A stretch of DNA of 7,200 nucleotides from a virus (IMGVR_UViG_2541047502_000014); one strand, 5' to 3'; numbered from the stretch's first letter, positions 1,036 to 1,787 are shown. Numbers and translations: made by a program. The notes: generated by a model from the letters alone, not told the origin.

Positions 1036-1533
1036 ATGAAATCATTAACCCTCTTCAATCAACCAATCCGTATCGGTGAAGATGGCATGATCTGCCTCAC
1101 TGATATGTGGAAAGCCAGTGGTAAAAGTGAATCTGAATCTCCGTACCACTACCTGCGAAACAAGCAGACCAAAGAGTTCTTGGCTGAGCTGGAGAAAAAC
1201 CACGAATCTGTGGTTTTTACGGAACGCGGTGCGCACGGTGGAACTTATGGCGGAAAGTTCGTTGCTTATGATTACGCAGCATGGCTAAACCCCGGATTTA
1301 AATATGCAGCCTATAAAGTCCTCGATGATTACTTCACCGGAGAGCTTCATCATCGGAACAGCTTAAGTGCGCAGCTCAACATGAAATGTCATGAGTTTGA
1401 TCAGAAAAAAGACATGGCGAGCTTCTGTGGACAAGGCCTCGCGGCATGGCGCTACACGAAACCTGGTTTGATCGCTGAAATTAACTCCCTGGCTAACCAG
1501 TTGCAGATTTCGATCCCCGGGCTTCCGGGATGA
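1036..1533 (+). CDS. KilA-N domain protein (phage DNA-binding / antirepressor-like), 165 aa
   Basis: The N-terminus IRIGEDGMICLTDMWKASGKSESESPYHYLRNKQTKEFLAELEK fits the KilA-N pattern (basic-x-x-x-D-G-hydrophobic-x-x-T-D-hydrophobic-x-K-A-x-G-K ... W-L-R ... T-K-E-F). It is a full-length ORF between two terminator-like regions. Confidence 0.6.
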   Translation: MKSLTLFNQPIRIGEDGMICLTDMWKASGKSESESPYHYLRNKQTKEFLAELEKNHESVVFTERGAHGGTYGGKFVAYDYAAWLNPGFKYAAYKVLDDYFTGELHHRNSLSAQLNMKCHEFDQKKDMASFCGQGLAAWRYTKPGLIAEINSLANQLQISIPGLPG

Positions 1534-1787
1534 GTGATCGTGTCATTGAATGCGCCTCCAGAGCGGGGCGCGACTTCTCAGAGTTCATGAAAGGCGAGAA
1601 GGGTATGATGGAAGCATTGGCCTCGGTGGATGAGTTTGGCGAGCAGCTGCGCCTCAACGGCTGTGTCAATCATCACTTTGTTAGCTACATGATGCGGAAC
1701 TCGATCATGCAGGCATTCATGGACATGGCAAAAGCCGAGAGGAAAGAAGAGCGCCGGCGTAAGCGAGCGGAAGCAAAAGCGAAGTAG
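1530..1787 (+). CDS. Hypothetical small protein (85 aa) with a highly basic C-terminal tail, translationally coupled to the KilA-N gene
   Basis: Its start overlaps the upstream stop in an ATGA arrangement (1530-1533). The ORF ends in KAERKEERRRKRAEAKAK. I recognise no family. Confidence 0.45.
   Translation: MSDRVIECASRAGRDFSEFMKGEKGMMEALASVDEFGEQLRLNGCVNHHFVSYMMRNSIMQAFMDMAKAERKEERRRKRAEAKAK

Follow-up and report, generated by a model that had tools for sequence, protein, structure and literature searches.

What do two small overlapping genes do between the lysis and packaging genes of a prophage, and when are they expressed? These questions are raised by a stretch of viral DNA 7,200 nt long (IMGVR_UViG_2541047502_000014; hereafter, the window), in which an earlier note, made from the sequence alone, had singled out a gene with a KilA-N domain (ORF1) and a small gene with an extremely basic tail (ORF2) as a moron-like insert and as the only candidate in the window for an undescribed function. 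Both open reading frames (ORFs) and their ATGA stop/start overlap at 1530-1533 are as that note described them, and they do lie between lysis and packaging genes, with Rz upstream and DUF1441/gpA downstream. The pair, however, is already catalogued as hkbK/hkbL of phage HK620. Overall, we conclude that this is a real, known pair that was partly misread as a moron. What the present analysis adds is a firm partnership between KilA-N proteins and ORF2, the membership of ORF2 in the Bro network (which includes KilA-N, Rha, Bro-N, and ANT), and a candidate cis-regulatory RNA common to many Bro-network genes. This RNA, a structured leader at 917-1041, is the most unusual element of the locus and was missed by the earlier note.

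The features of the locus are as follows.

865-889, + strand: intrinsic-terminator-like hairpin after Rz (stem 865-873/877-885, then a T-run), from RNA folding
896-920, + strand: small hairpin P0 (ATGCGT-ACCGCA-ACGCAT at 896-913, then TTTTTT), from a terminator scan
917-1041, + strand: structured leader RNA of ~105 nt, from folds, covariation, and covariance-model matches
1036-1533, + strand: ORF1, 165 aa, with KilA-N and ORF11CD3 domains and a TGA stop at 1531-1533
1530-1787, + strand: ORF2, 85 aa, with its ATG at 1530-1532 overlapping the ORF1 stop as ATGA
1786-1827, no strand assigned: strong hairpin at the right edge with 17-nt arms (fold of 1780-1885, -38 kcal/mol, z -5.5)

A structured leader RNA upstream of ORF1

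In the predicted structure of the leader, positions 928-965 pair with 986-1028 as a 35-bp rod in which the Shine-Dalgarno (SD) sequence GUAGGU (1023-1028) is buried, and positions 922-927 (CACCGA) pair with 980-985 (UCGGUG) in the apical loop as a pseudoknot helix; the ORF1 start codon at 1036 lies outside this pairing. We aligned the upstream regions of all collected KilA-N-ORF11CD3 homologues (53 distinct sequences, with protein identities as low as about 50%). The order of elements, consisting of a GC-rich terminator with its T-run, a short hairpin, and ~105 nt of leader, is kept in phages of E. coli, Salmonella, Leclercia, Cronobacter, Klebsiella, and Erwinia, and across these homologues the leader diverges in sequence while retaining its complementarity. 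Single minimum-free-energy folds of 29 divergent homologues nearly all gave the 35-bp rod with the SD in its 3' strand; the median z was -2.8, and the AUG was unpaired with a probability of 0.97.

RNAalifold recovered only 6 pairs from a plain MAFFT alignment of the leaders because the helices were misaligned, so a covariance-model alignment was used instead. The first covariance model (R1), built from eight window-like sequences, recovered divergent copies. Rod cells were paired at 90.1%, versus 70.7% in column shuffles (0 of 500 reached the observed value) and 34-51% with the partners slid, and 28 of the 35 rod pairs had changed on both sides, counts that are inflated by the fitting of the rod alignment to the model. 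The pseudoknot helix lies outside the covariance model and hence was not fitted; its cells were paired at 85.3%, versus 64.8% when shuffled (again, 0 of 500) and 24-52% when slid, and double changes were present in 4 of its 6 pairs. Variants of this helix include CACCGA/UCGGUG, CGUCGA/UCGACG, CGAGAG/CUCUCG, CCAAAGA/UCUUUGG, and UCGAGAG/CUCUCGA.

The leader of the window scored 151 bits with R1 and 126.9 bits with a second covariance model (R2), on the + strand only; the reverse strand scored ~20 bits versus 150 with R1 and gave no match at E ≤ 0.01 with R2. Together with the many G-U pairs, these scores point to an RNA of the sense strand. The leader thus combines compensatory structure, sense-strand specificity, and a fixed position before a start codon, as is characteristic of cis-regulatory leaders. 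Rfam 15 returned no match at E ≤ 1 in positions 300-2500, nor at the leader copies in seven divergent loci, and no description of the leader was found in the searchable literature, which does not prove that none exists.

An element of this kind could also work as DNA, as a boundary sequence for the recombinational swapping of Bro-network genes rather than as RNA. Such a role would suit its location precisely where modules join, the loss of homology between KilA-N and Rha versions at the start codon, the near-identical copies that stand ahead of different genes, and the known tendency of the Bro network to shuffle domains (PMC10111431). Recombination homology, however, predicts neither the 28 of 35 compensatory pairs nor a covarying pseudoknot, many of the G-U pairs would, on the opposite strand, read as A-C mismatches, and the reverse strand scores as poorly as described above. 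In addition, the 3' strand of the rod falls on the SD in every case, with a constant spacing to the ATG. We therefore regard a DNA-level role as improbable.

The leader precedes many Bro-network genes

R2 matches were all on the + strand, each of them ending at a start codon. The downstream genes encode KilA-N-ORF11CD3 proteins, KilA-N-P63C proteins (HK97, HK022, KP12, and loci L011, L012, and L103), Rha-ORF11CD3 (locus L003), P22_AR_N-ORF11CD3, a lone KilA-N, and an HNH/AP2-like protein; in a metagenomic phage of 36% GC, an R2 match precedes a fusion of an ORF2-like domain to T5orf172. At one Salmonella locus, four copies of the leader, each with a terminator and small hairpin, stand before four consecutive Bro-network genes. 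The window-type leader sequence alone is carried by 836 of 5,426 complete E. coli genomes, in some of them at as many as five places, and by 75 phage records. ORF2 as a requirement for the leader was ruled out, as the leader also precedes genes that have no ORF2. The anti-small-RNAs AgvB and AsxR of enterohemorrhagic E. coli prophages were likewise considered and set aside; they map to the pR' moron site, elsewhere than the leader.

The complete P22 genome (L264) contains a single R2 match, at 39525-39649 (107 bits), ahead of rha. The annotated start of P22 rha/ORF201 (GTG, 39575) falls inside this leader; the start given by the model is the ATG at 39644, from which the protein would be about 23 residues shorter.

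Matches to other RNA families were seen at two further loci. In a Salmonella prophage (L101), positions 126-345 match the Rfam small RNA STnc100 at 70.7 bits, above the gathering score, ~100 nt upstream of a leader copy. In a Klebsiella phage (L103), there is a match to a sar-like antisense RNA beside Arc/Bro-N genes, which at 37.6 bits is below the gathering score of 43.

ORF1 and ORF2

Based on Pfam, residues 9-101 of ORF1 are a KilA-N domain (PF04383; E 7.4e-16, 58.4 bits against a cut-off of 23.8), as the earlier note had recognized, and residues 109-161 are an ORF11CD3 domain (PF10549; E 2.1e-12, 47.5 bits against a cut-off of 25), which had gone unrecognized. The protein is identical to WP_000839224.1 and matches phrog_129, annotated as "transcriptional regulator." AlphaFold2 predicted an N-terminal beta/alpha domain followed by two long helices at residues 86-131 and 134-156, with a predicted local distance difference test (pLDDT) score of 83.5; the helical hairpin of ORF11CD3 is probably an oligomerization module. 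NCBIfam and PADLOC searches yielded no useful family for the pair; PADLOC gave a weak match of ORF1 to PDC-S22 (E 1e-8), restricted to residues 60-90, and returned no match to BstA. From its place in the domain network, ORF1 is most likely a KilA-N, Bro-network DNA-binding protein of the antirepressor-like kind, in keeping with what had been suggested for it.

The ORF2 product is identical to WP_001283921.1. It has no family match in Pfam or NCBIfam but matches phrog_875, a family without assigned function, over residues 1-85 of 85 (E 3.2e-54). In a codon comparison of seven diverged loci, the ratio of nonsynonymous to synonymous substitution rates (dN/dS) was 0.04-0.30, with synonymous sites near saturation. 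ORF2 is a genuine gene under purifying selection; the earlier note had raised a lack of conservation as a sign that it might not be one. Its homologues form 138 protein clusters, nearly all of 83-91 aa, with the invariant motifs ECASR.GRDFS.F and GCV, and the extremely basic tail KAERKEERRRKRAEAKAK is present and conserved. AlphaFold2 predicted three helices at residues 3-20, 26-42, and 48-84 (pLDDT 92.8), of which the last is long and rich in arginine and lysine.

An HMMER search of 1.84 billion representatives returned only 21 matches to ORF2, so the family is narrow. Two distant relatives consist of an ORF2-like helical domain fused to T5orf172/MUG113, another Bro-network domain; one of these fusions adjoins a KilA-N-P63C gene, and the other lies between lysis genes and terminase. 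ORF2 itself belongs to the Bro network.

The tail of ORF2 (1770-1787 and homologues) varies by Ala-Lys dipeptide repeats, giving forms of 85, 87, 89, and 91 aa and length steps of 6 nt among loci, and it is frameshifted in HK97 p61 and several database entries. Within the family, C8 and C45 are invariant and H48 and H49 nearly so (codons at 1551-1553, 1662-1664, and 1671-1676); these residues might form a metal site.

ORF2 accompanies KilA-N genes

ORF2 is 100% identical to hkbL of HK620, and ORF1 is 92-95% identical to hkbK. The pair also occurs in HK97, HK022, the mEp phages, Shiga toxin (Stx) phages of both the Stx1 and Stx2 types, Shigella phage Ss-VASD, and Salmonella phages. O157:H7 Stx1a prophages carry a 901-nt stretch of the window at 100% identity, and there the two genes are annotated as "KilA-N domain-containing protein" and "hypothetical protein." Among complete E. 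coli genomes, 2,623 of 5,426 contain a match and 389 of 5,426 the whole 901-nt stretch; such recurrence at 100% identity is far beyond chance. A scan of genome contigs returned six loci only. A literature search on ORF11CD3, hkbK, and KilA-N with RNA motifs found no study of the function of either gene.

The earlier note had proposed checking whether the two genes co-occur, and they do. In all 80 IMG/VR loci with an identical ORF2, a KilA-N-ORF11CD3 gene is directly upstream with the same overlap, and ORF2 is intact. The Rz allele beside these 80 pairs ranges from 49 to 100% identity; the pair is constant while its neighbor varies, which indicates that it moves as a unit. In HK97, HK022, Klebsiella phages, Scandinavium, Raoultella, and Trabulsiella, an ORF2 homologue instead follows a gene for a KilA-N+P63C protein (~245 aa), starting 2 nt past its stop codon. 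Where Rha-ORF11CD3 fills the slot between Rz and terminase, no ORF2 lies downstream. ORF2 therefore tracks KilA-N and not ORF11CD3, and these two arrangements rule out ORF2 as a partner of the ORF11CD3 domain. In the RefSeq record of HK022, neither the KilA-N-P63C gene nor ORF2 is annotated. In Erwinia phage phiEt88 and a relative (L097 and L098), an ORF of ~57 aa (MTKTEYNRIDASLEYL...), which carries no annotation in phiEt88, overlaps the stop codon of the KilA-N-ORF11CD3 gene (by 4 nt in L098); from its position, it may be an analogous, non-homologous partner.

That the pair directly precedes the packaging genes, in the window as well as in HK97, HK022, HK620, and Stx phages, could mean that it is a packaging accessory, a DNA-binding protein beside cos or pac that helps terminase in the manner of the HNH protein gp74 in HK97. 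We consider this very unlikely, given that the identical pair is found with three unrelated modules (DUF1441/gpA, HNH with an HK97-type terminase, and a P22-type pac terminase) and that close relatives with the same terminase lack the pair. Furthermore, in Klebsiella phage ST11-VIM1phi8.1, the KilA-N+P63C/ORF2 pair is found after the tail genes, beside an Arc/Arc/Bro-N immI-like region.

The insertion slot and the state of the prophage

In related prophages with the same flanks, the slot is empty, contains Rha-ORF11CD3, or contains ParDE together with the pair. An O157 prophage (L002) lacks the pair and another prophage (L003) has Rha in its place, both with unchanged flanks, which supports the description of the region, given in the earlier note, as an accessory insert and, from these comparisons, as an exchangeable cassette in the slot between Rz and the packaging genes. 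In pairwise comparisons with the window, the left-hand breakpoints of homology recurred at 888-963 or 1039, and the right-hand ones at 1787, 1824, or 1870-75. In L003, homology extends from Rz through the whole intergenic region to 1039, at the start codon, and resumes from 1870; in L002, it returns at 1787, the ORF2 stop codon. Based on the breakpoints of L003 and others, the 200 nt upstream of ORF1 are common to different cargo genes.

The earlier note described the insert as bracketed by terminator-like hairpins. Upstream, this is correct (865-885 and 896-913, both with T-runs), although the terminator there is a conserved part of the cassette itself. Downstream, the hairpin at 1786-1827 lacks a U-run and so is not a canonical intrinsic terminator; it is also present in L002, which lacks the pair, and hence belongs to the backbone. 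A second downstream hairpin (1827-1874) is weaker, with 74% complementarity. In HK97, HK022, HK620, L014, and many prophages, the hairpin of 1786-1827 (AGCCATTACAAAGCCCA...TGGGCTTGATAATGGCT) occurs as a direct repeat flanking an extra 160-550 bp, and it looks like a module-boundary element. The coordinates of this arrangement are 2757-3043 in L005, 2756-3100 in L007, and 4275-4974 in L014; the extra segment between the repeats contains ~150 conserved, apparently non-coding nucleotides and, in L014, one ORF as well.

Beyond the cassette, the window includes the following features.

1-351: end of an IS3-family insertion sequence (IS) element (IS629/IS1203-like), with the transposase OrfA N-terminus on the minus strand
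396-833: Rz/Rz1, upstream of the pair (Rz: Pfam Phage_lysis, E 1e-34)
2396 onward: lambda-type packaging genes, including a DUF1441 small-terminase-like gene and gpA terminase

Phage homology begins at 352, beyond the end of the IS element, so that Rz and the pair are cut off from holin, endolysin, and the late promoter. The prophage is defective: relative to the O157:H7 Z1486 prophage, which is 99.94% identical to the window and served as the reference for lesions, a 1-nt deletion at ~2682 frameshifts the DUF1441 small-terminase gene, and a TGG-to-TGA substitution at 3624-3626 cuts the large terminase at residue 246. The portal gene is broken into two ORFs (5125-6249 and 6344-6706); the identical split is annotated in Z1486, which indicates an inherited lesion and not a sequencing error in the window. 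Despite the terminase lesions, the KilA-N pair is still intact.

Entry to the cassette and the search for a promoter

The stem at 865-885 has a GC core (GCCUCGC/GCGGGGC) followed by UUUUU, as expected of an intrinsic terminator, and GCCTCGC-loop-GCGGGGC-TTTTTT stands ahead of almost every leader copy in divergent loci, including that of P22. This hairpin (865-889) forms the conserved first element of the cassette. The small hairpin P0 resembles a terminator in the window; its counterpart in relatives, a conserved stem-loop GCGCA...TGCGC, has no T-run. Its stems differ between loci yet stay complementary (e.g., AATAC/GTATT in L095, a locus of 36% GC).

A scan limited to the sigma-70 consensus found no sigma-70-like site on the + strand from 780 to 2450, no conserved -35/-10 was seen in the aligned upstream regions of the family, and neither a LexA box nor a sigma-70 promoter was apparent upstream of ORF1 by eye or by scan. 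A moron in the sense of Juhala et al. in 2000 is reportedly an insert between adjacent genes that has its own promoter and its own downstream terminator and is expressed from the repressed prophage. Like the lambdoid morons lambda bor and HK97 gp15, the pair is an optional insert in a variable slot between genes that are adjacent in relatives. It differs from them in having no detected promoter of its own, a terminator located upstream, with a strong hairpin that lacks a U-run on the downstream side, and a sequestered SD. The part of the earlier reading that implied a classic moron with its own promoter is thus not borne out. The conserved upstream terminator would stop non-antiterminated transcription at the entrance of the cassette and the SD is buried in a conserved hairpin, so the lysogen expression that had been suggested also looks unlikely.

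These observations bear on the main alternative to the reading we favor, in which the pair is a lysogen-expressed moron that protects its host, for example through abortive infection like that of BstA, with ORF2 as a modulator or immunity factor. BstA of Salmonella prophage BTP1 is a KilA-N abortive-infection protein encoded by a prophage accessory gene (PMC8585504), and the paper describing this prophage defense protein repeatedly mentions KilA-N. ORF1 shares with BstA the N-terminal KilA-N domain and prophage accessory status. The weak PDC-S22 match through the KilA-N region, the survival of an intact pair in a decaying prophage (IS insertion, small-terminase frameshift, large-terminase nonsense codon), and the toxin-antitoxin genes that the slot also houses in relatives could likewise be read as signs of defense. 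However, no promoter-like site was found, and the conserved terminator and buried SD oppose constitutive expression. The PADLOC match is limited to residues 60-90, and the same leader is found ahead of P22 rha, a gene within the late operon. ORF1 also differs from BstA in size, C-terminal domain, genomic position, and expression logic, being 165 aa with an ORF11CD3 tail instead of ~300 aa with KilA-N and the BstA C-terminal domain. We consider a defense function unlikely.

A proposed mode of expression and action

The reading we favor, to which we give about an even chance, is a self-contained Bro-network accessory cassette consisting of a control front end, the KilA-N-ORF11CD3 gene ORF1, and a coupled ORF2, which would belong to the late operon and be gated by its leader. 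The front end would comprise the terminator (865-889), the small hairpin (896-913), and the ~105-nt leader (917-1041), in which the 35-bp rod would pair the SD with an upstream anti-SD strand and the loop of the rod would form a pseudoknot with the 6 nt on its 5' side. Transcription would come solely from Q-antiterminated late-operon polymerase reading through from Rz: as no promoter was found, a terminator stands at the entrance, and the cassette is on the late-operon strand downstream of Rz, we infer that only Q-modified polymerase arrives. The SD-sequestering rod would hold down translation of ORF1 and, through coupling, of ORF2 until the leader is remodeled, for which the candidates are an alternative pseudoknot conformer, a trans-acting factor, and RNase processing.

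Because ORF2 overlaps ORF1 and lacks a good SD, it would be made by termination-reinitiation at the ATGA and is thus expected in fixed proportion to ORF1. Its product, of three helices with a tail rich in arginine, would serve as an adaptor dedicated to partnering KilA-N proteins. ORF1 would be a KilA-N DNA-binding oligomer with this small basic adaptor beside it, and the two proteins would jointly serve as a regulator of the antirepressor/Rha type that binds nucleic acids, acts late, and is non-essential.

Several points weigh against this proposal, in addition to the inflated pair counts of the rod. The rod and the loop-to-base pseudoknot are sterically awkward together in the modeled structure, because the pseudoknot links the tip of the rod to its base and is hard to fit to a straight 35-bp rod; they may instead represent alternating states of a switch. 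Between the terminator and the leader, there may be a promoter that is weak or not of the sigma-70 type. Distant KilA-N-ORF11CD3 genes of Erwinia phage phiEt88 and Cronobacter have an unrelated small ORF in the position of ORF2, so ORF2 is not universally required. The predicted structures that the earlier note had called for were obtained for both proteins, and the fold searches were uninformative: Foldseek against the PDB returned only weak matches for ORF1 (DdrC, E 0.56; the APSES protein Mbp1, E 0.84), and searches of the PDB and BFVD with the ORF2 model found nothing below E 0.18.

A broader and more tentative possibility concerns the leader. The terminator-hairpin-pseudoknot leader could be an undescribed class of cis-regulatory RNA that gates KilA-N, Rha, P22_AR_N, and T5orf172 genes in temperate phages of Enterobacteriaceae and of further hosts, switching between the SD-hiding rod and the pseudoknot on a phage or host signal. 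ORF2 may perhaps be an RNA-binding partner, as its arginine-rich helix resembles RNA-binding arginine-rich motifs and could bind such leader elements. We offer this as a conjecture that, as a whole, is somewhat less likely than not.

Comparison with known systems

The closest relatives of the pair are hkbK/hkbL of HK620, which are orthologues with the same ATGA overlap and the same place after Rz, and which show no essential difference. In HK97 p60/p61 and the unannotated pair of HK022, the partner is instead a KilA-N+P63C protein, and ORF2 of HK97 ends in the frameshifted tail noted above. Rha of P22 and phi80 (Pfam Phage_pRha) matches ORF1 in its slot after Rz, its C-terminal ORF11CD3 domain, and the terminator-hairpin-leader front end that precedes it, but has Rha instead of KilA-N as its N-terminal DNA-binding domain and is followed by no ORF2. 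Rha is associated with a phage growth defect in integration host factor (IHF) mutants.

Silencing of Bro-network or antirepressor-type genes at the RNA level, at translation initiation, also occurs in the arc-ant/sar module of P22 and the c4-icd-ant module of P1, and in the Klebsiella phage locus L103, the pair itself lies beside an Arc/Bro-N antirepressor-type module with the sub-threshold sar match. The P22 and P1 modules use trans or antisense RNA, whereas the pair would use a cis-acting pseudoknotted leader. Rfam models of sar and other families gave no match to the leader.

Implications for temperate phages

The interest of the finding rests mainly on the leader. Gene starts, such as that of P22 rha, are corrected by these results, which also delineate a candidate RNA family not represented in Rfam. 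As the system is present in the tractable phages P22, HK97, HK022, and HK620, simple reporter and deletion experiments are possible. Bro-network genes are among the commonest unexplained genes of temperate phages, prophages, and satellites, including Shiga-toxin phages. The dedicated front end that a whole set of them shares, consisting of a terminator and an SD-hiding pseudoknotted leader, provides one handle on these genes, and the fixed small partner of their KilA-N proteins provides another.

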